From: Gemmatimonadales bacterium
GTDB lineage: Bacteria > Gemmatimonadota > Gemmatimonadetes > Gemmatimonadales > GWC2-71-9
Assembly (NCBI GenBank): GCA_035693225.1
Contig: DASSGV010000073.1
Coordinates: 24,692 to 88,691 of the forward strand
Reading direction: 5' to 3'
DNA: 64,000 nucleotides
The position numbers were made by a program, and so were the translations under genes. A model generated the notes under the pieces. The model was not told the origin of the DNA. It searched no databases and saw only the letters and a program-made list of their open reading frames with translations. Below are positions 8,547 through 17,020 of the stretch, piece after piece; positions within the stretch are counted from its first letter, which is position 1; the number at the start of each line of letters is the position of its first letter.

Positions 8547-8930
8547 TCAGCGCCGACCGAGATCCAGCAGGCGGGTCCACTCCGTCCGGGAAACCGGCAT
8601 CGCGCTCAGCCGGGAGATGCGCACCAGGGCAAAGCCGCGGAAGGCGGCGTCGGCCTTGACCTCGGCAAGCGTCACCGGGCGGCGCAGGATCTTCTCGAAC
8701 TCGAGCGTCACGACCCCATCGACCGGATCACCGGTGAACACCCGGGCGACGCCGACGATGGCCTTCTCGGTGCCGGTGTGATACACCAACACCTGGTCAC
8801 CCACGGTCATCTTCCGAAGGTTGATGAGCGCCGCGGCGTTCTTGACACCATCCCACCGGGTCCGCTTCTCCCGCTGGAGGTCGGCGATGGAATAGGTCGA
8901 CGGTTCGGTCTTCAGGAGCCAGTAGGGCAT
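8547..8930 (-). CDS. EVE (PUA-like) domain protein
   Basis: Start moved to ATG 8930 (MPYWLLKTEPSTYSIADL...WDGVKN...LRKMTVGDQVLVYHT). The upstream 53 codons of the ORF-track call are just the translated heptamer array. Confidence 0.85.
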   Translation of the reverse strand: MPYWLLKTEPSTYSIADLQREKRTRWDGVKNAAALINLRKMTVGDQVLVYHTGTEKAIVGVARVFTGDPVDGVVTLEFEKILRRPVTLAEVKADAAFRGFALVRISRLSAMPVSRTEWTRLLDLGRR

Positions 8931-9056
8931 AGTAAGAAGTAAGAAGGGAGAAGGGAGAAGGGAGAAGGGACGAGTGAAGAGTGAAGAGTGAAGAGTGAAA
9001 AGTGAAAAGTGAAGAGTGAAAAGTGAGAAGTGAAAAGTGAGAAGTAAAGAGGAAAA
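8931..9056. repeat. In-phase tandem heptamer array of 18 units, purine strand on +
   Basis: Units are (AGTAAGA)x2 (AGGGAGA)x3 AGGGACG (AGTGAAG)x3 (AGTGAAA)x2 AGTGAAG AGTGAAA AGTGAGA AGTGAAA AGTGAGA AGTAAAG AGGAAAA. The array starts at the base next to the EVE start codon. Confidence 0.9.
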
Positions 9057-9119
9057 GGCGAAAAGAGGGGTCGAGAACCGTGGGAACACTGATGAGAACG
9101 ATGCGCCCTCGCCCGATCG

Positions 9120-10019
9120 TCAGAACCGATCAAGATCCTTCGCAATGGCGACGCGGCCGGTGAAGCCACCACGACGGATCCCCGCCACCAGGTCGGAGTC
9201 GGACGCCCCCATCCACTCGACGTGGGTCACGACCAGGAGCCGTGGCCGAGCCCGCGCGGCGAGGGCGCCCAGCTCCTCGTCCGAGGTGTGGAACGACCGG
9301 AGATATGCCGGCCAGTCTTTCCCGCCGGGGCGGTCCTCCGGCGCGACGCGCGATGACGGGTATGCCTCGTGCACCAGCACATCGACCCCGCGCGCCGCGA
9401 CCTCGAGCGAATCGCTGGGGCGGGTATCACCGGAGATCACGATGACCCGGCCCGGGGCGTCGATGCGGTAGCCAAACGCCACCGGCCAGTTTCCGTGGCG
9501 CACCGGGATGGCGGTGACCCGGACCCCGCCACTGTCGAATGCCACGCCGGGGCCGATCTCGTGCACCGTCACACGCCAGGCGCCGGCGACCTCGTGCTCC
9601 AGGCCATCGGTCCGGATCCGGATATCCTCCGCGTACGCCGCGGTCAGGTGATCGACCATTGCCGCGGTGCCCGGAGGGCCGTAGATCGGGAATGGCGCGA
9701 GACGACGCATCACCCACGAGGTCAGGATGAGGTCCGCGAGGCCGAGAGTGTGATCGGAGTGCAGGTGGGTGAGGAAGAGCGCCGCAGGGCCGGAGATCGG
9801 GAGGCCGGCGGCGCGGAGCTGGCGTTCGACCCCCGATCCGGCATCGAAGAGGAAGACCCGGCCGCCGATGGTGACGACCGTGGCCGGGCCCTGGCGCCCG
9901 GGATCGGGGAAGGGATTTCCGGTGCCGAGGGTGATGACCTGCACGGGAGGCGGCCGCTGCCCGGCGAGGATCGACGCACCGCCCGCCAGCGCCACCGCCG
10001 CCAACAGCGCACTCCGCAT
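9120..10019 (-). CDS. Secreted MBL-fold metallo-hydrolase
   Basis: Start moved to ATG 10019 (MRSALLAAVALAGGASILAGQ signal peptide). It carries the HLHSDH metal motif. Confidence 0.85.
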   Translation of the reverse strand: MRSALLAAVALAGGASILAGQRPPPVQVITLGTGNPFPDPGRQGPATVVTIGGRVFLFDAGSGVERQLRAAGLPISGPAALFLTHLHSDHTLGLADLILTSWVMRRLAPFPIYGPPGTAAMVDHLTAAYAEDIRIRTDGLEHEVAGAWRVTVHEIGPGVAFDSGGVRVTAIPVRHGNWPVAFGYRIDAPGRVIVISGDTRPSDSLEVAARGVDVLVHEAYPSSRVAPEDRPGGKDWPAYLRSFHTSDEELGALAARARPRLLVVTHVEWMGASDSDLVAGIRRGGFTGRVAIAKDLDRF

Positions 10020-10030
10020 TCGCGTCGCGC

Positions 10031-12193
10031 TCAATTTCCCGTCTCCCGGCGCTCGACCTCGGCCACTCCTTTCACCTTCCGCATCGCCTTGACGACCTTG
10101 TCGAGGTGGGGGAGGGAGTCGACCTCGACCAGCACCGTCCCGAACATCGTGCCGTCCTTGGACTGGATCTCCGCACCCTTGATGTTGGTCCCGGTGGCGC
10201 TGATGGCGCTCATCAGGTCGGCGTAGAGGCCGCGACGGTCGTCGCCGCTCACTGCCAGCCGCACCGCAAAGCTCTCCCCCGCGACCTCCTGCCAATCGAT
10301 GTCGACCCGGCGGCCCTCGACCGGCAACGTGAGCAGGTTGGGGCAATCGGCCCGGTGGATCGAGATCCCCCGTCCCTGGGTGACGTACCCCACCACCGCA
10401 TCGCCGGGGAGTGGCTGGCAGCACTGGGCGTAGCGGACCAGGAGCCCGTCGGCACCCTGGATCTGGATCCCCTTCCGCTGGCGGAACCGGTCGATGACCC
10501 GGCCGAATACCGTCGGCTTGGGTTCGACGAGCTCGTCATCGGGCAGGTCCGGATAGAGCGCCTTGATGACCGCACCGATCGCGATGTCACCGCGCCCCAC
10601 CGCGATGGCGAGCCCGGCACCGCCGTTGACCGAGAGCACCACGGCGGCCCGTTCCATCCGCGGATCATCCGGGGGATCGAGGCGCCTGCGCTTGACCTCG
10701 CGCGCCAGCAGCTCGCGACCCATCGTCTCCTGGACCCGCTCTTCCTCGTGGTTGATCCACTGCTTGATCTTGTGTCGCGCGCGGGCCGTGTGGACGTGAC
10801 TGAGCCAGTCGCGGGACGGGCGGGCGTTCGGACCGGTGAGGATCTCGACGGTGTCGCCATTCTTGAGCGCCCGATGCAGGGGCGCGATCCGCCCGTTGAC
10901 CCGGGAGCCCTGGCAGCGGAGCCCCACCTCGGTATGGACGTGAAAGGCGAAGTCGATGGCGGTGGCACCCTTGGGCAGCCGCTTGACGTCGCCCTGCGGA
11001 GTGAAGACGAAGATCTCGTCCTGGTAGAGGTCGATCTTGAGGAACTCGAGGAACTCCTCCGGACTGGCGGCGTCCTGCTGCAGCTCCAGCAGCTGCCGGA
11101 ACCACCCCAGCTGCCGGTCGAGCTCGTCGGGCGTCTCCCCTTCCTTGTCCTTGTACAGCCAGTGCGCCGCAATGCCGTACTCGGCGGTCCGGTGCATGTC
11201 CTGGGTGCGGATCTGCACCTCGAAGAGCTGTCCGCCGGGACCAAAGATCGTGGTGTGGAGCGATTGGTAGCCGTTCGACTTGGGGCTGGCGATGTAATCC
11301 TTGATCCGCTCCTGGATCGGGGTCCAGACGTGGTGGATGATGCCGAGCACGTGGTAGCAGTCCGCCACGGACTTGACCATCACGCGCACCGCCATGAGGT
11401 CGTAGATCTCGTCGAAGGGCTTGTCGCGGGTACGCATCTTCCGGTAGATCGACCAGAGGTGCTTGGGGCGCCCCGTCACCTCGAACCATCCGATCCCCGC
11501 CTTGGTGAGCTCGAACTCGAGCGGGGTCCGGAGTGTGAGGATGGTGGCCTCGCGGGCGATCCGCTTGGACGCGACCTGCTCGCTCAGCCCCCGATATTCC
11601 GCCGGCTCGAGGAACTTGAACGCCAGGTCTTCCAGCTCCGCCTTGACCCCGGCCATCCCGAACCGGTGCGCCAGGGGCGCGTAGATCTCCCGGGTCTCGG
11701 TCGCGATGCGCTCCCGCTTCTCCGGCGGCAGGTGTTCGAGCGTCCGCATGTTGTGCAGTCGGTCGGCCAGCTTGATGATGATGACCCGCGCGTCCTTGGC
11801 CACCGACAGCAGGAGCTTGCGGTAGTTCTCGACCTGGGCCTCGGTGGTGGAGCGGAACGTCAGGTGGGACAGTTTGGTGAGGCCATCCACCAGCCCCGCC
11901 ACTTCGGGCCCGAACTCCCGTCCGATCTCGTCCAGTCGGATCTCGGAGTCTTCCACCACGTCGTGCAGGAGTGCTGCCGCGATCGACGTGGTGTCGAGGA
12001 GCTGGTCCACGAGGATCTGCGCCACCGCGATCGAGTGGGACACGAAATCGTCCCCCGACATCCGCTTCTGTCCGCGGTGGGCGGACGCGCTGAAGCGCAG
12101 GGCCCGATCGATGAGATCCAGGTCCAACCGGTCGGCGTGCCGCTCCAGCGAGGCGCGGAACCCCGGTGCGATGTCGGTGATGGCCAGCGTCAC
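10031..12193 (-). CDS. relA: Bifunctional (p)ppGpp synthetase/hydrolase (RelA/SpoT homologue)
   Basis: 720 aa with a GTG start. It has an HD domain (HRGQKRMSGDDFVSHS...LLHDVVED), a synthetase domain (YQSLHTTI), and TGS and ACT C-terminal domains. Confidence 0.95.
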   Translation of the reverse strand: MTLAITDIAPGFRASLERHADRLDLDLIDRALRFSASAHRGQKRMSGDDFVSHSIAVAQILVDQLLDTTSIAAALLHDVVEDSEIRLDEIGREFGPEVAGLVDGLTKLSHLTFRSTTEAQVENYRKLLLSVAKDARVIIIKLADRLHNMRTLEHLPPEKRERIATETREIYAPLAHRFGMAGVKAELEDLAFKFLEPAEYRGLSEQVASKRIAREATILTLRTPLEFELTKAGIGWFEVTGRPKHLWSIYRKMRTRDKPFDEIYDLMAVRVMVKSVADCYHVLGIIHHVWTPIQERIKDYIASPKSNGYQSLHTTIFGPGGQLFEVQIRTQDMHRTAEYGIAAHWLYKDKEGETPDELDRQLGWFRQLLELQQDAASPEEFLEFLKIDLYQDEIFVFTPQGDVKRLPKGATAIDFAFHVHTEVGLRCQGSRVNGRIAPLHRALKNGDTVEILTGPNARPSRDWLSHVHTARARHKIKQWINHEEERVQETMGRELLAREVKRRRLDPPDDPRMERAAVVLSVNGGAGLAIAVGRGDIAIGAVIKALYPDLPDDELVEPKPTVFGRVIDRFRQRKGIQIQGADGLLVRYAQCCQPLPGDAVVGYVTQGRGISIHRADCPNLLTLPVEGRRVDIDWQEVAGESFAVRLAVSGDDRRGLYADLMSAISATGTNIKGAEIQSKDGTMFGTVLVEVDSLPHLDKVVKAMRKVKGVAEVERRETGN

Positions 12194-12205
12194 GAACGCC
12201 CCTTT

Positions 12206-12239
12206 GGCGCGGTCCTTATCTACATAAGGTAACCGCGCC
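12206..12239 (-). promoter_or_regulatory. Long hairpin/palindrome immediately upstream of relA
   Basis: Structure is GGCGCGGT-CCTTAT-CTAC-ATAAGG-TA-ACCGCGCC. It ends 13 nt before the relA GTG, and its AT-rich core stands out in GC-rich DNA. Confidence 0.4.
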
Positions 12240-12278
12240 GGCGGGAGCGACGAGGGTCACGTGCGATCCGGCGGAAGC

Positions 12279-13853
12279 TCAGTCCTCCCCGGGGAACGGG
12301 CGGGGCTCTGGCCGCGGCTCGGGCCAGGGCCAGGGGTTCACCCCTCCGCGCCCGAGGGCCCGTGCCGCGCCGGCGCGCTCGTCTGCGCTCCCGGTCTGGA
12401 GCGCATTCAGCAGGGCGCTCCGGGCAGCATCGTCGTCCATCTGGCTCAGGCCCCAGAGCGCCGCCTTCCGCACGTCGCTGCTGGCGTCCTTGAGCGCGTC
12501 CCTGAGACCGGGCACGGCGGCGGCGTCCCCGATGTTGCCGAGCGCCCACGCCGCCTTCTCGCGCACCTCGGAATCGGGATCCTTGAGCGTACCGATGAGA
12601 CTGGCCGGCGCATGGTCCGGTCCGAGGGTGCCGATGCCCCACGCCGCCGTACCGCGAATGTCGGCGGAGCTGTCGCTGAGCGCGCCAATGAGGGCGGGGA
12701 TCGCGTCCTTGGCGTCGAGCTGCGCCAGCGCCCAGGCGCAGGTGGACCGCACCTCCCGATCGCGATCGGCGCGGAGCGCGGCGGAGAGCATCGGGATCGC
12801 ATCGCGATCGCCGATCTGCGCCAGCGACCACGCTGCCGTGCGGCGGACCGCCACGTCGCTGTCGCCCTGCAGGTGGTGGCCGAGCGCGCCGACCGCTGTC
12901 CGGTCCTCCCCCTGCCCCAGCGCCCACGCGGCGGTCTCACGGACGCCGGCGTCCGCATCGTCGAGGGCACGCACCAATCCGGCGGTGGCGATGGTCGGGT
13001 CGATGTTGCCGAGGGCCCACGCGGCGACGCGCCGGACCTCCACGCTCTTGTCCCCGAGCGCGGCGGCGAGCGCCGCTCCCCCCTCCTTCTCACCCAGATG
13101 GCCGAGCGCTTCGGCTGCCGCGATCCGGACCTTGTCGGCGGGGTCGGTGCGCAACGCGTGCGCCAGGGCATCGACCACCGTCGAATCACCTACGCGGCCG
13201 AGTGAGGCGGCGGCGGCGGCACGTACGGCGGGCACCTGATCCTTGAGCGCTGACTGGAGCGGTGCCGCAGCGCGCGACTCATCGAGCTGACCCAGTCCCC
13301 ACGCCGACATCACCCGCACGCCGGGCACCGGGTCGTGCAGGTGCGCGATCAGGGGATCCACCGCCTGCCCTGACCCGCCGAGTCCGAGTGCCACCGCCGC
13401 CGCGGAGCGCACCTCTCCCGTCGTGGCATCGAGTGCCGTGAGGAGCCCTCGGGTCGCAGCGGCAAGTTCGCTCCGCGCAATGAGTCGGGCGGAGATGGCG
13501 CGGGCGCAGGCACTCGAGTCGGCGACCCCGGCGAGCAGCACCGGGATCGCTGCCTCGGTCGGGCGTTCCGTCAGGGCCCGCTCGGCCGCGGCATTCCCAT
13601 CGAGGTCGGGAGGCGTGAACCAACCTCCCCGTCCGTACCGGGCTTCGATGGCTCGCGCCGCGAGGGCGCAGATGTCGGGCGGCGTGGTCCGGGCTTCGGC
13701 GAGTACCGCGCGGGCCCAATCGGCATCATCACGATCGGGACCCGCCGTGGAGGCTGCCGGCGTCACGGCCGGGGGACGCGGACCGGCCAGTGCAGACCCC
13801 ACGCCGGCGATGATCATCCCGACCAGGAGCCCCGGGATCGCGGACTTGAGCAT
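12279..13853 (-). CDS. Signal-anchored HEAT-repeat (PBS-lyase type) protein
   Basis: Start moved to ATG 13853, which is preceded by GGAGGA; the ORF-track start at 13877 is a TTG. It has an N-terminal hydrophobic helix (IPGLLVGMIIAGVGSALA) and 12 repeats of the ..VR..AAWALG..GD..A.. type. Confidence 0.8.
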   Translation of the reverse strand: MLKSAIPGLLVGMIIAGVGSALAGPRPPAVTPAASTAGPDRDDADWARAVLAEARTTPPDICALAARAIEARYGRGGWFTPPDLDGNAAAERALTERPTEAAIPVLLAGVADSSACARAISARLIARSELAAATRGLLTALDATTGEVRSAAAVALGLGGSGQAVDPLIAHLHDPVPGVRVMSAWGLGQLDESRAAAPLQSALKDQVPAVRAAAAASLGRVGDSTVVDALAHALRTDPADKVRIAAAEALGHLGEKEGGAALAAALGDKSVEVRRVAAWALGNIDPTIATAGLVRALDDADAGVRETAAWALGQGEDRTAVGALGHHLQGDSDVAVRRTAAWSLAQIGDRDAIPMLSAALRADRDREVRSTCAWALAQLDAKDAIPALIGALSDSSADIRGTAAWGIGTLGPDHAPASLIGTLKDPDSEVREKAAWALGNIGDAAAVPGLRDALKDASSDVRKAALWGLSQMDDDAARSALLNALQTGSADERAGAARALGRGGVNPWPWPEPRPEPRPFPGED

Positions 13854-13903
13854 TGTTCCTCCGAAGGTACGGGCCAAAGCCCGCTCAGGGTGACGTGACA
13901 GAC

Positions 13904-13919
13904 TGCTGATTATTCAGCA
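13904..13919. promoter_or_regulatory. Dyad TGCTGA-TTAT-TCAGCA, second copy of the blaI-promoter dyad
   Basis: It has perfect 6-bp arms identical to those at 16286-16301. It lies in the 107-nt gap between the blaR1-like stop and the HEAT gene ATG. Confidence 0.45.
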
Positions 13920-13960
13920 CTTCGAGTGCACGACAGCCCGCACCGTGGTGCGGCCTGCCG

Positions 13961-15883
13961 TCAGCGAACGATCGGCATCGGCTGGGGCCAGGGGCTCGCG
14001 CCATTCCCGCCCAGGGCCCGGGCGGCCTGTGAGCGGAGTTCCGGATCGGCATCCTGGAGCGCACGGATCAGGGCCGCCTGGGCCGGATCGCCGCCGAGCT
14101 CGCCCAGGGCCCAGATCACCGCCTTCCGCACCGAGGCGTCTTCGTCGGCAAGGGCCTTCCCGAGCGCCGCGGCGGCGGTGCGGTCCCCGATCTGCCCGAT
14201 GGCCCACGCCGCTTCCGCCCGGACCTCGGGCGTGGCATCGCGGAGCGCGTCGGTTAACTGGGCCGGCGCGGTCGGGGGTTGGGTGTTCCCGAGCGCCCAG
14301 GCGGCCCGCTCGCGCACGTCCGGGGAGCGATCATGCAGGGCCGACGCGAGCGCACCCGCCGCGGCCGTGTCCCCGATCTCCGCCAGCGCCCAAGCGGCGA
14401 TCAGCCGGACGCTTGAAGCCGTGTCGGAGCCGAGTGCCGCATCGAGGGCGGGGATCGCCGCGCGATCCTGGATCTGCCCCAGCGCCCATCCCGCCATCTC
14501 CCGCACGTCCGGATCGGCATCACGCTGCAGGGTGCGCACAAGGGCCGGGACGGCGTCGGCGTCCTGCCGTTGCCCGAGGGCATATGCGGCATTCTTCCTC
14601 ACATCCATCACCGGATCGGCCAAGGCCCGGGACAGGGAGGCCACGACCTCGGCGCCCTGCCCCGTGTCGGAATGGGTCGGGACGAGGACCGTGAGCGGTC
14701 CTGACCGCAGGGCGGATCGGGGCCGCTCCGGCAGTGCGGGCCGACGCACCGGCGGTGCAACGGCCTGGCGCTCCTGGGCGGGGCCCGGAGCTGGAGCGGC
14801 TGCGCGGACGGGCACGAGCGCCGCCAGCGGTACGATCAACACGAGGCCGAGGGCGGCCAGCATTCCGGCGCGGAGCCGCGAGGGTGACTCCCGGCGAAGC
14901 CCGCGGGCGAGGATCGCGAGCACCCGCCCCTCGAACTCACGGGGCTGGGCGAGTGGCAGGGCCACGGCGGGGGTGACCTGCCGCCGCGCGGCGCTCACGA
15001 TCTGCAGCAGGTGATCGGCATATTCGGACGGCCGGGTCCCGGTGCGCAGCACGAGGTCATCGCAGGCGCGCTCGCTCTCGATCCGCATCCGCCGGAGCGC
15101 CACCCAAGCCAGCGGATGGAACCAGTAGGCCGCCGCCGCCACCTGACCGATGGCATTCATCAGCACGTCGAACCGGCGCACGTGGGCCAGCTCGTGGCAG
15201 AGCACCGCGCGTCGGCGACGGGCGTCCCACTCGGCGGCGCGGCGGGGCATGACGATCGCCGAGCGGACGAGCCCGCACGCGAACGGCATCGGGAGCGCGC
15301 TCGCCATCAGGAGCGTCGGCAGCCGCGGCAGGGCCAGCCGACCGCCGAGATCCTCGAGCGGCTCGCGCCACTCGGGCGCCTCCAACGGTTCCGCCCGGCG
15401 GACCACGCGCCGGATGGCGAACGCCCCGAGCAGGAGCTGTGCAAGGACGAGGAAGACTCCCCCGCCCCAGACGAGGGCGGCCGTGGCCGTCGCCGAGAGC
15501 GTGGAACGGGACGTCACGACCGGTGCGTCGCGGCGGACCGTTCCCGCCACCCGGGAGCTCGGCAGGTCGATCCGCCGAGCATCGGTCGCCACTGGCGGCA
15601 CGAAGGCGGGCGGCGCTTCCGCCGGCGATGTCGTTGGCGCAGCCGCCGGAGCGGACAGGAGCGTCACCGGAAGTTTCCACGGCAACGACAACGAGAGGAG
15701 CGGGATCAGCAGTGCGGTGGCCAGCGCACCGCTCCAGAGGAGGTGCCGCGCCGCGGCCGACGCGCCGCGGAGAAGTGCCGCCAGCAGGCCGGCCACGCCA
15801 AGCACCAGCGTGACCTTGAGTGCTACCCCGAGGGCCCACGCGAGCCCGGCGGGAATTCCGGAGAGCGTGAGGATGTCCGTCAC
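13961..15883 (-). CDS. blaR1: BlaR1/MecR1-family M56 metallopeptidase signal transducer with a C-terminal HEAT-repeat module
   Basis: 640 aa with N-terminal TM helices and the zinc site CHELAHVRRFD. After a late TM helix (AGMLAALGLVLIVPLAALVPV) come 7 HEAT-type repeats (DVRKNAAYALG, DVREMAGWALG, ...). The GTG start overlaps the blaI stop (GTGA). Confidence 0.85.
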   Translation of the reverse strand: MTDILTLSGIPAGLAWALGVALKVTLVLGVAGLLAALLRGASAAARHLLWSGALATALLIPLLSLSLPWKLPVTLLSAPAAAPTTSPAEAPPAFVPPVATDARRIDLPSSRVAGTVRRDAPVVTSRSTLSATATAALVWGGGVFLVLAQLLLGAFAIRRVVRRAEPLEAPEWREPLEDLGGRLALPRLPTLLMASALPMPFACGLVRSAIVMPRRAAEWDARRRRAVLCHELAHVRRFDVLMNAIGQVAAAAYWFHPLAWVALRRMRIESERACDDLVLRTGTRPSEYADHLLQIVSAARRQVTPAVALPLAQPREFEGRVLAILARGLRRESPSRLRAGMLAALGLVLIVPLAALVPVRAAAPAPGPAQERQAVAPPVRRPALPERPRSALRSGPLTVLVPTHSDTGQGAEVVASLSRALADPVMDVRKNAAYALGQRQDADAVPALVRTLQRDADPDVREMAGWALGQIQDRAAIPALDAALGSDTASSVRLIAAWALAEIGDTAAAGALASALHDRSPDVRERAAWALGNTQPPTAPAQLTDALRDATPEVRAEAAWAIGQIGDRTAAAALGKALADEDASVRKAVIWALGELGGDPAQAALIRALQDADPELRSQAARALGGNGASPWPQPMPIVR

Positions 15884-16266
15884 CGTCCCTCCCCTTCCGC
15901 ACGACGGATCTCGCGGGCCAGGCGGCGCAGCGTGGCCTCGGACAGGGCCAGGTCCTCGCGCCGCAGAAGTGCGGCCATGGTGCGCTCCACCGAGCCATTG
16001 AAGAAGGTGTCCACCAGGTGATCGACCGCGACACGCCGGGCCCGGTCCCGGGGCACTGCGGGTGCGTAGACGTACCGGGAGCCATCGGCGCGATGGGTCA
16101 CGTGCCCCTTGTTCCGGAGGATCCGGAGGATGGACCGGACCGCCGAATAGGTCGGTGGGTCCTCAAGATCGTCGAGGACCTCGCCCACGGTGGCCTCACC
16201 CCGACGGTGGAGCACGTCCATCACTTCCCGTTCCCGGCGGCTGAGCGGCGGCTGTTCCTTGGGCAT
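15880..16266 (-). CDS. blaI: BlaI/MecI/CopY-family winged-helix repressor
   Basis: Start moved to ATG 16266, which is preceded by GGAGGGG. The sequence reads MPKEQPPLSRREREVMDVLHRRGEATVGEVLDDL...YSAVRSILRILRNKGHV. Confidence 0.85.
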   Translation of the reverse strand: MPKEQPPLSRREREVMDVLHRRGEATVGEVLDDLEDPPTYSAVRSILRILRNKGHVTHRADGSRYVYAPAVPRDRARRVAVDHLVDTFFNGSVERTMAALLRREDLALSEATLRRLAREIRRAEGEGR

Positions 16267-16285
16267 TTTCCCCTCCGGCATGATC

Positions 16286-16301
16286 TGCTGAAATTTCAGC
16301 A
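16286..16301. promoter_or_regulatory. Perfect 16-bp palindrome TGCTGAAATTTCAGCA, a candidate BlaI operator
   Basis: It lies 1 nt downstream of the predicted -10 and about 20 nt upstream of the blaI ATG. Confidence 0.5.
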
Positions 16302-16302
16302 T

Positions 16303-16331
16303 AAGCTATGCACCCACCCCGCTGCCGTCAA
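16303..16331 (-). promoter_or_regulatory. Sigma70-type promoter of the blaI-blaR1 operon
   Basis: On the minus strand: TTGACG (16331-16326), 17 nt, TAGCTT (16308-16303). The -35 overlaps the radC stop codon. Confidence 0.5.
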
Positions 16332-17020
16332 GCCGGTGCCAGAAGGCCCTCCCCGGAGAAGCTGAAGAAGCGGTCTCCCGCCACGATGACGTGGTCGTAC
16401 ACCGGCAGGTCGAGCAGGCGCCCCGCCTCCACCAATTGTCGGGTGACGGCCTTGTCCTCGGCGGACGGGGTCGGATCGCCGCTGGGGTGGTTGTGCACCA
16501 CGATGATCCCGGCGGCGGCCTCGGCGATGGCGGCACGGAACACCTCGCGCGGGTGCACCAGCGAGGAATTGAGCAGCCCACGCGTCACCAGCACGTCACG
16601 GATCACCTGGCTCTGGCTGTCGAGCGCCAGGAGGTGGAACTCCTCGACGCTCAGGTCGCGCAGGCGTGGACCGAGGAGACGCGCGACGTCGGCGGGATCG
16701 CGGATCCGGTGGCCCGGTTGGTGCGATTCCGCCGCCAGACGGGCGCCGATCTCGAACGCCGCCACCAGGCGCCCCGCCTTGGCACGCCCGACGCCGACGC
16801 TCTGCAGGAGTTCGGCCGAGGGACGGGCGGCCAGCCGGCGCCACGAGCCACCGGCTGCGTCGAGGAGCCCCTGGGCGATGGTCGTCGCGGGGCGCCCCTG
16901 GCTGCCGGTCTCGAGGAGGATGGCGAGGAGCTCTCCGCCGGTGAGCGCGCCGGGTCCGAGCGCCCAGAGACGTTCACGCGGCCGATCGGCCGACGGGTGC
17001 ATCGGCACCGGGAGTGTCAT
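16328..17020 (-). CDS. radC: RadC-family JAB-domain protein
   Basis: 230 aa with helix-hairpin-helix motifs (GVGRAKAGRL) and the JAMM motif VVHNHPSGDPTPSAED. Confidence 0.9.
   Translation of the reverse strand: MTLPVPMHPSADRPRERLWALGPGALTGGELLAILLETGSQGRPATTIAQGLLDAAGGSWRRLAARPSAELLQSVGVGRAKAGRLVAAFEIGARLAAESHQPGHRIRDPADVARLLGPRLRDLSVEEFHLLALDSQSQVIRDVLVTRGLLNSSLVHPREVFRAAIAEAAAGIIVVHNHPSGDPTPSAEDKAVTRQLVEAGRLLDLPVYDHVIVAGDRFFSFSGEGLLAPA

Follow-up and report, generated by a model that had tools for sequence, protein, structure and literature searches.

Introduction

The best-described relatives of the locus reported here are the BlaI/BlaR1/BlaZ and MecI/MecR1/MecA systems of Staphylococcus aureus (8EXP-8EXT), in which a repressor gene is coupled to the gene of an M56 protease. 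The protease carries HExxH and ExxxD motifs, has four transmembrane (TM) helices and bears an extracytoplasmic C-terminal sensor after the last helix, and palindromic operators stand before the operon and before a separate output gene. The stretch under study is a 64-kb window from a soil bacterium of the Gemmatimonadales (the window is the whole stretch of DNA that was analyzed, and all coordinates are window positions). It contains three genes, head to tail on the minus strand, that encode a BlaI/MecI/CopY-family winged-helix repressor of 128 amino acids (aa) (blaI, 15880-16266), a 640-aa M56 (BlaR-like) membrane metalloprotease with a HEAT solenoid (13961-15883), and a free-standing HEAT protein of 524 aa that is predicted to be exported (HEAT2, 12279-13853). 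The layout is that of the staphylococcal systems, with HEAT2 in the blaZ/mecA position. In contrast to those systems, a HEAT alpha-solenoid without the SxxK/SxN/KTG triad takes the place of the penicillin-binding protein (PBP)-like sensor, the output is a predicted secreted HEAT protein rather than a beta-lactamase or PBP, and the host is diderm.

According to Kurtz et al., true beta-lactam sensors make up only ~6% of M56 proteins, InterPro holds 254 M56 architectures, and a blaI-like gene is found close to ~96% of M56 genes (PMC13492132). HEAT falls outside the nine architectures with at least 100 InterPro entries, and the paper assigns it no function; the other heads include TonB_C, M23, Plug, CarbopepD_reg_2, DUF4825 and Amidase_3 (PMC13492132). 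The modular principle is the same in all of these, a conserved protease core with swappable extracytoplasmic heads. Atypical BlaIR systems are known from C. difficile (CenIR; PMC13492132), P. aeruginosa (PvmSR; 10.64898/2026.08.03.742534), M. tuberculosis (Rv1846c/Rv1845c) and M. abscessus, and like the present locus they pair a BlaI-like repressor with an M56 protease unable to bind beta-lactams, the switch serving other inputs. In the atypical systems the C-terminal domain is absent or unstructured, whereas here it is large, well folded and conserved, and it is accompanied by a probably co-regulated paralog. Literature searches on M56 together with HEAT, on BlaI/BlaR1 in the phyla concerned and on periplasmic HEAT proteins returned nothing specific.

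An earlier reading of the DNA, made without database searches (the sequence-only reading), had proposed a BlaR-type switch wired through an extracytoplasmic solenoid to an input other than beta-lactams. The checks of fold, topology and conservation described below support this proposal, although such an input is less unusual than had been supposed, because non-beta-lactam sensors are the majority of M56 proteins (PMC13492132). The general switch logic and the swapping of sensors are already known, while the HEAT head, the predicted secreted and probably co-regulated paralog, the operator, the aromatic ladder and the C-terminal tails are undescribed. The locus is a real, conserved and undescribed variant of a known switch type.

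Results

Domain composition of the M56 protein

Peptidase_M56 was matched over residues 26-324 of the 640-aa protein with an E value of 1.3e-33 (116.9 bits against a cut-off of 31). The zinc site HELAH (residues 230-234; 15182-15196) aligns to HEYAH of BlaR1 in 8EXP, and the third-ligand motif ERACD (residues 271-275) lies inside an invariant ESERACDD; HEXXH and EXXXD have been described as M56 signatures (10.64898/2026.08.03.742534). In the alignment of 48 M56-HEAT orthologs on which all conservation counts for this protein are based, the HELAH site was invariant, as were residues H230, E231, H234, E271 and D275.

The C-terminal part was matched by HEAT_2 (E=2.4e-42, 143.6 bits against a cut-off of 27.7) and HEAT_PBS (E=1.6e-31), and seven repeats of 31-32 aa were counted over residues 422-640. 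Residues ~370-640 matched HEAT and alpha-solenoid families only, with no PBP-like or other sensor fold. An AlphaFold2 (AF2) model of the full-length protein, built from the 48 orthologs, had predicted local distance difference test values of 96-98 over residues 410-625, and a Foldseek search with this model returned alphaRep proteins as the best Protein Data Bank (PDB) matches (TM-score 0.89, root mean square deviation ~2.2 Å). Pfam, the repeat pattern, AF2 and Foldseek together place a predicted periplasmic seven-repeat HEAT solenoid at residues 409-626 (14006-14659).

Residues 361-640 gave no match to Transpeptidase and contain neither KTG nor SxN, and the sole SxxK (S584-VRK) lies within a HEAT helix. 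The scores against the NCBIfam models blaR1_generic (93 bits, cut-off 400) and MecR1 (34 bits, cut-off 1200) were far too low for membership. The scores of the HEAT proteins against the CpcE, CpcF, CpeY and NblB equivalogs were likewise all far under the cut-offs (for CpcE, for example, 58 and 108 bits against 330). The protein thus lacks the penicillin-binding C-terminal domain that defines BlaR1 and MecR1. The 640-aa M56 peptidase with its HELAH site, the seven tandem ~31-aa HEAT repeats and the lack of penicillin-binding motifs had all been read from the letters alone, and each of these readings held when examined with profiles and models.

Membrane topology

Hydropathy and AF2 placed four hydrophobic or TM helices at about residues 12-37, 43-66, 131-163 and 336-360. 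TM4 (about residues 339-360; 14804-14869) is the most hydrophobic segment, with a hydropathy maximum of 2.61 and an AF2 helix at 336-355. It holds AGMLAALGLVLIVPLAALVPV at residues 339-359, the same segment that the sequence-only reading had given as the last TM helix. Five Arg residues occur in the 14 residues before TM4 and one after it. The Arg-rich segments are the short TM1-TM2 loop, the segment after TM3 (RRVVRR) and the segment before TM4 (RGLRRESPSRLR). Because the flanks after TM3 and before TM4 are rich in K/R, the protease loop is predicted to be cytoplasmic and the HEAT solenoid periplasmic. This orientation is modeled on homology to BlaR1, and hydropathy, the positive-inside charges and the AF2 model are consistent with it. 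A disordered Pro/Ala linker of ~50 aa (residues 359-407 in AF2) follows TM4. Further support comes from the paralogous HEAT2 protein of the window, for which, as for every ortholog inspected, an N-terminal export signal is predicted. The location of the repeats outside the cytoplasm, on which the sequence-only reading depended, is therefore favored by hydropathy, charge bias, the M56/BlaR1 layout and the HEAT2 export signal alike.

The equivalence of the TM core to that of BlaR1 is drawn from the Pfam and NCBIfam assignments and from a profile match, because the Foldseek results for the full-length model were dominated by the solenoid and the 50 matches listed did not include BlaR1. When the first 410 aa of the M56 protein were used alone, phmmer gave no match in the PDB. 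When a profile of eight orthologs was used for the N-terminal part, BlaR1 (8EXP) was the sole PDB match, over the zinc site and with a weak E value of 0.017.

The free-standing HEAT protein

The HEAT2 gene starts 107 nt after the M56 gene, the gap that the sequence-only reading had given, and a ribosome binding site (RBS), GGAGG, is located 5 nt before its ATG. HEAT_2 was matched with an E value of 5.5e-74 (245 bits against the cut-off of 27.7). The protein consists of a hydrophobic leader, a helical N-terminal region of ~120 aa and the repeats, of which 12 are clear from residue 142 onward, in agreement with the earlier count, with degenerate helical pairs ahead of them. In AF2 it forms a single continuous solenoid over residues 43-501 (predicted TM-score 0.73).

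The sequence-only reading had taken the leader of HEAT2 for a signal anchor. It looks instead like a cleavable Sec signal peptide, MLKSAIPGLLVGMIIAGVGSALA followed by GP (13785-13853), with a hydrophobic segment and an A-L-A (A-x-A) site, the latter read by eye. N-terminal hydrophobic leaders were present in the HEAT2 orthologs inspected, which were drawn from the loci fetched for comparison; a database search with the first 172 aa of HEAT2 as query gave one hit only, an effect of the word prefilter. HEAT2 also has a conserved N-terminal Cys motif (P..IC.LA...GW) and a second conserved Cys in the first repeat, and the two conserved cysteines are compatible with a periplasmic disulfide.

An aromatic ladder and Pro/Trp tails shared by both HEAT proteins

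The seven repeats of the sensor align without gaps to the last seven of HEAT2 at 48% identity, the terminal repeat included. Judged from this alignment, the relationship is one of true paralogy and not of generic repeat similarity. The repeats share the 31-aa consensus D..VR..AA.ALG.IGD..A.P.L and the fold of PBS-lyase-type HEAT proteins and their designed derivatives (alphaRep, CpcE/F, NblB, YibA, MTH187). Unlike the natural members of that group, which are cytoplasmic, the two HEAT modules in the window are predicted to be exported, have a position that is variable in alphaRep fixed as Trp, and carry an added Pro/Trp tail; in contrast to the case of the phycobilin lyases and NblB, the host is not a cyanobacterium.

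The position in question is the x of the AAxALG motif. In the sensor it is occupied by Y434, W466, W498, W529, W560, W591 and R622, and the five Trp residues of this ladder were invariant in the 48 orthologs. Over 290 repeats the position was W in 68%, Y in 16% (the first repeat) and R in 15% (the last repeat). HEAT2 has W there in eight repeats, and an Acidobacteriota clade has F. The same position varies among the alphaRep sequences aligned here, and we take it to be the hypervariable concave-face binding position of the alphaRep design.

Both proteins end in Pro/Trp-containing tails. The sensor tail, ASPWPQPMPIVR-COOH (13964-13999), is conserved in the orthologs, 46 of the 48 ending in PWP(W/Q)P..MPI(V/I/H)R, and is disordered in AF2. 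The tail of HEAT2 is NPWPWPEPRPEPRPFPGED (12282-12338), and its orthologs end in NPWPWPxPRPxPRPFP. In ~1 Mb of fetched sequence, in-frame Pro/Trp tails were confined to the two HEAT protein types. A function as a general C-terminal sorting tag was considered and rejected on the grounds of this restricted occurrence and of the absence of a TM segment after the tails. An attractive idea is that the tails may serve as pseudo-ligands for the aromatic ladder.

The repressor gene

The repressor matched Penicillinase_R over residues 20-132 with an E value of 2.1e-26 (92.9 bits against a cut-off of 22.6), and was far under the NCBIfam cut-offs for BlaI (NF012168, 33 bits against 180) and CopY (TIGR02698, 44 against 122). 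Metal sensing of the CopY type was rejected, since the repressor contains no cysteine and scores under the CopY cut-off. GGAGGGG precedes the blaI ATG at 16266, and a longer blaI open reading frame (ORF) reaching 16302 would begin inside the first of the operators described below. The blaI stop overlaps the GTG start of the M56 gene (GTGA). Both the BlaI-family gene at 15880-16266 and its GTGA coupling to the protease gene had been recognized in the sequence-only reading, and blaI was found directly 5′ of the M56 gene in essentially all of 80 related loci.

Candidate operators and promoters

For comparison, 80 loci from a species-level genome collection (L001-L080) and three closer metagenomic relatives (L081-L083) were used. 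Comparison with orthologs identified a promoter-like site of the blaI-M56 operon (16303-16331, minus strand), read from the sequence as TTGACG (16331-16326), a 17-nt spacer and TAGCTT (16308-16303). The layout TTGAC(G/A)-17-hexamer was also found in L001, L081-L083 and L005-L008. Two bases after TAGCTT, between this -10-like hexamer and the blaI RBS, begins the predicted operator 1, a perfect 16-bp palindrome, TGCTGAAATTTCAGCA (16286-16301, minus strand). The predicted operator 2, TGCTGAATAATCAGCA (13904-13919, minus strand), is located between the M56 and HEAT2 genes, 43 nt from the stop of the former and 52 nt from the start of the latter, and includes an AATAAT -10-like hexamer. The 64-kb window has exactly two copies of the pattern TGCTG-N6-CAGCA, one ahead of each transcription unit. 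The 14-bp core GCTGA-N4-TCAGC likewise occurs twice in 64 kb against 0.06 expected, and a degenerate form of it matched the same two sites only. The half-site TGCTG differs from that of the staphylococcal operators, whose half-sites are of the TACA/TGTA type.

The identical 16-mer stands ahead of blaI in L001, L081, L082 and L083, whose M56 proteins are 83%, 50%, 61% and 51% identical, respectively, to the window protein over the N-terminal query. Ahead of HEAT2, L081-L083 and L005-L008 have one or two sites, which share bases with a -10-like hexamer downstream of a TTGACA -35. L014 and L025 also have such a -35 before HEAT2, and the variant at both of their operator positions is a local one, GCTA-N6-TAGC in type. 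In L003, L004 and L009 the blaI site is the only one present; no separate HEAT2 site is needed there because the HEAT2 gene overlaps the M56 stop, and the same overlap is probable in L002, where the contig ends. The palindromes upstream of blaI are best read, on this sequence comparison, as binding sites of this repressor branch. Because a copy of the blaI operator stands ahead of the HEAT2 gene, HEAT2 very probably belongs to the regulon of the repressor.

Many of the other BlaI-M56 pairs (L013-L080), whose C-terminal heads are of other kinds, have lineage-specific palindromes of 16-18 bp located ~20-110 nt upstream of blaI, often in two tandem copies. The types seen were TGCTA-N6-TAGCA in many Acidobacteriota and some Planctomycetota, TGGCA-N6-TGCCA in many Planctomycetota, and TGCTGC-TTTT-GCAGCA in Bryobacterales. 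These palindromes could serve as a key for regulon prediction in such large paralog families. A heptamer-like repeat (ACCCAGA/ACCCCTC) was also noted ahead of blaI in L005.

Conservation of the three-gene arrangement

The N-terminal 410 aa of the M56 protein retrieved >1,100 homolog clusters, all with automatic names only. The best 120 of these were nearly all M56-HEAT proteins of 630-690 aa from Gemmatimonadales bins or soil metagenomes. Relative to the other M56 architectures, M56-HEAT is distinguished by this number of clusters and by their concentration in Gemmatimonadales metagenome bins. The fusion was found in Gemmatimonadota (L002-L010), in Vicinamibacterales (L012) and in other Acidobacteriota (L014, L016, L025, L030). 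A second HEAT gene is next on the same strand in L003-L010, L014, L025, L030 and L081-L083; in L016 an extra HEAT gene is located upstream of blaI instead. Another order occurs in a Longimicrobiaceae locus (L037, 3723-7860), where blaI is followed by a gene for an exported 392-aa protein ending in HEAT repeats and then by an M56 gene, whose product has a C-terminal beta-rich domain and then HEAT repeats.

Judged by these sequences, the arrangement is conserved in many genomes far beyond chance, and its recurrence in Gemmatimonadota and some Acidobacteriota bears out the three-gene unit that the sequence-only reading had recognized in one genome. The flanking genes differ between relatives, so the module appears to be self-contained, with HEAT2 as its sole evident output. 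Tandem M56 genes on the same strand were seen in L007 (1-5203), each with its own blaI, and in L029 (1-4714), with a blaI match before the first only; these tandems point to local duplication of modules.

Genomic context

The nearest locus in the genome collection, L001, is from a Gemmatimonadales metagenome-assembled genome, and its M56 protein is the one 83% identical. In the window the module is flanked by core genes, SecA and RadC upstream and RelA/SpoT downstream. The SecA-RadC-module order also occurs in L082, and RadC precedes the module in L001 too. The RadC/JAB-domain gene directly upstream (16328-17020, minus strand; E=8.8e-42) has an end reported 25 nt ahead of the -35-like hexamer of the blaI promoter-like site. 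The G+C content of the window is ~70%; it is 72-74% over the module (12000-16000) against 66-70% in the flanking genes, a difference probably explained by the Ala/Arg/Gly/Pro-rich repeats. Both strands of the module region contain many long spurious ORFs that overlap the genes.

Two genes downstream of the module, with relA/spoT in between and no operator nearby, lies a gene for a metallo-beta-lactamase (MBL)-fold hydrolase (9120-10424, minus strand; Lactamase_B_2, E=6.5e-23) with a signal-peptide-like sequence, MRSALLAAVALAGGASILA, and a real start probably near 9900. Its membership of the switch was rejected on the grounds of the missing operator, the intervening relA/spoT and the Lactamase_B_2 type, and it is probably unrelated. 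Between the EVE-domain and MBL-fold genes, positions 8931-9057 hold heptanucleotide arrays (AGTAAGA x2.3, AGAAGGG x4 and AGTGAAA x12), alternatively read as a 21-nt unit x4. Translated, these arrays give the odd FSLFTLH repeats with which the over-long ORF 8547-9089 begins.

Discussion

The results described above are best explained by a self-contained three-gene BlaI/BlaR-type proteolytic derepression module, and we put the probability of the whole mechanism at about 0.6. A dimeric BlaI-family repressor would bind TGCTG-N6-CAGCA at the blaI-M56 promoter and before HEAT2. The M56 protein would span the membrane four times with its HELAH/ERACD protease in the cytoplasm, and the Pro/Ala linker after TM4 would project the seven-repeat solenoid into the periplasm. 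There a ligand would bind to, or leave, the aromatic ladder; the likeliest candidates are extended polymers, peptides or glycan strands for example. If this event activates the protease, then the repressor would be cleaved, as expected from homology to BlaR1, and both transcription units would be derepressed. Besides the sensor and the repressor, the output would be a secreted 12-repeat paralog of the sensor with the same ladder and a related Pro/Trp tail. The most likely role of HEAT2, we infer, is a periplasmic one directed at this same ligand, either sequestering it or giving protection, and negative feedback on the sensor would follow. In BlaR1, too, the sensor domain has relatives among proteins that bind what the output binds, for it is class-D-beta-lactamase-like.

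Support by analogy for an extended ligand comes from importin-alpha, in which a Trp ladder on the concave face grips extended basic peptides. The HEAT proteins of the window resemble importin-alpha and the armadillo peptide binders in being alpha-solenoids with a concave Trp ladder, and designed armadillo proteins bound to (KR)n peptides were among the Foldseek matches. The likeness is functional, with no sequence relationship beyond the solenoid fold, and peptide binding is suggested here by analogy. A more specific form of the proposal, which we regard as doubtful, is that the module is an inducible periplasmic peptide sink, in which the Trp ladders grip extended Pro/Arg-rich or cationic peptides, such as antimicrobial peptides of competitors, and the PWPWP-PRPxPRP tails are built-in pseudo-ligands that fill the groove as long as nothing displaces them. 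Loss of the sensor tail from the groove would then activate the protease, and HEAT2, once induced, would soak up the peptide.

Several observations weigh against the derepression mechanism as proposed. A partly structural role is conceivable for the Trp of the AAxALG motif, and AF2 leaves both tails disordered, with no confident docking. The extracellular loop equivalent to the sensor-contacting loop of BlaR1 is unconserved and disordered here, and L012 has an M56-HEAT protein without a second HEAT gene. A strict sigma-70 promoter and terminator scan of 12000-16600 made no calls, the blaI site included. In the window, the -35 of the HEAT2 promoter is poor, the second operator that L082 has at this place has been lost, and no terminator was found between the M56 and HEAT2 genes; because of these three features, read-through from the blaI promoter may be as important for HEAT2 as its own promoter, or may even be its main source of expression.

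The main rival explanation is that HEAT2 is not an output that acts on the ligand, but the regulatory partner of the sensor, docking on its solenoid or tail and holding the protease off or on. The true signal would then be whatever titrates or degrades HEAT2, in the manner of the periplasmic inhibitors of anti-sigma cascades. The two modules are close paralogs, each ends in a conserved tail that might occupy the groove of the other, their genes are always adjacent or fused, and co-regulation with the sensor suits a stoichiometric partner. However, the sensor of L012 occurs without HEAT2, and the sensor lacks five of the repeats of HEAT2 as well as its N-terminal Cys-containing region. We consider such a partnership possible, with the odds clearly against it. 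The sequence-only reading had offered HEAT2 as a partner or decoy, and the operator copy of its own strengthens and sharpens this suggestion, short of proving it. It is a good deal less probable that there is no specific ligand at all and that the HEAT repeats, as a scaffold or spacer, keep a housekeeping membrane protease in position at some envelope structure, with the repressor only regulating its own operon. No ligand is known, many M56 proteins have an unstructured C-terminal domain or none, some of these being essential (PMC13492132), and the module is located among the core genes SecA, RadC and RelA/SpoT. On the other hand, the concave-face ladder and the tail are invariant, in contrast to most other positions on the surface, and a second, operator-controlled paralog would be hard to explain.

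Two further explanations seem to us highly improbable. If the topology were reversed relative to BlaR1, or if TM4 did not span the membrane, then the HEAT repeats would be cytoplasmic, as the characterized PBS-lyase HEAT proteins CpcE/F and NblB are. Such an arrangement is opposed by the hydropathy of TM4 (2.61) and the five Arg in the 14 residues before it against one after, by the need of the catalytic loop to reach a cytoplasmic repressor, and by the HEAT2 export signal in every ortholog inspected. Equally far-fetched is a sensing of beta-lactams or of cell-wall damage that persists, as in BlaR1, but by an indirect route, to which the family name, the gene order and the MBL-fold gene two genes away might point. 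The sensor has neither a PBP fold nor the motif triad and is far under the NCBIfam BlaR1/MecR1 cut-offs, and the MBL-fold gene is of the Lactamase_B_2 type, is separated by relA/spoT and has no operator. Moreover, the sensor-less BlaR homologs tested so far had no effect on beta-lactam resistance (PMC13492132; 10.64898/2026.08.03.742534).

BlaR-type proteases are mostly sensors of something other than beta-lactams, and hardly any has a known signal. The self-contained derepression module proposed here is a tractable case, with a folded and conserved head that is predicted to be periplasmic, a candidate binding surface in the aromatic ladder and a defined operator. Its sole evident output is a soluble paralog of the sensor head, and ligand fishing with a soluble protein is therefore possible. 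Exported PBS-type HEAT solenoids have been little studied, and the Gemmatimonadota, in which this family of them is abundant, are a major soil phylum of which little is understood. If the peptide-sink form of the proposal were true, BlaR-type proteases would have a sensing principle that is new for them, and resistance or immunity proteins would gain a new class. The finding overturns nothing; it provides a well-defined entry point to what the non-beta-lactam BlaR-like proteases sense.

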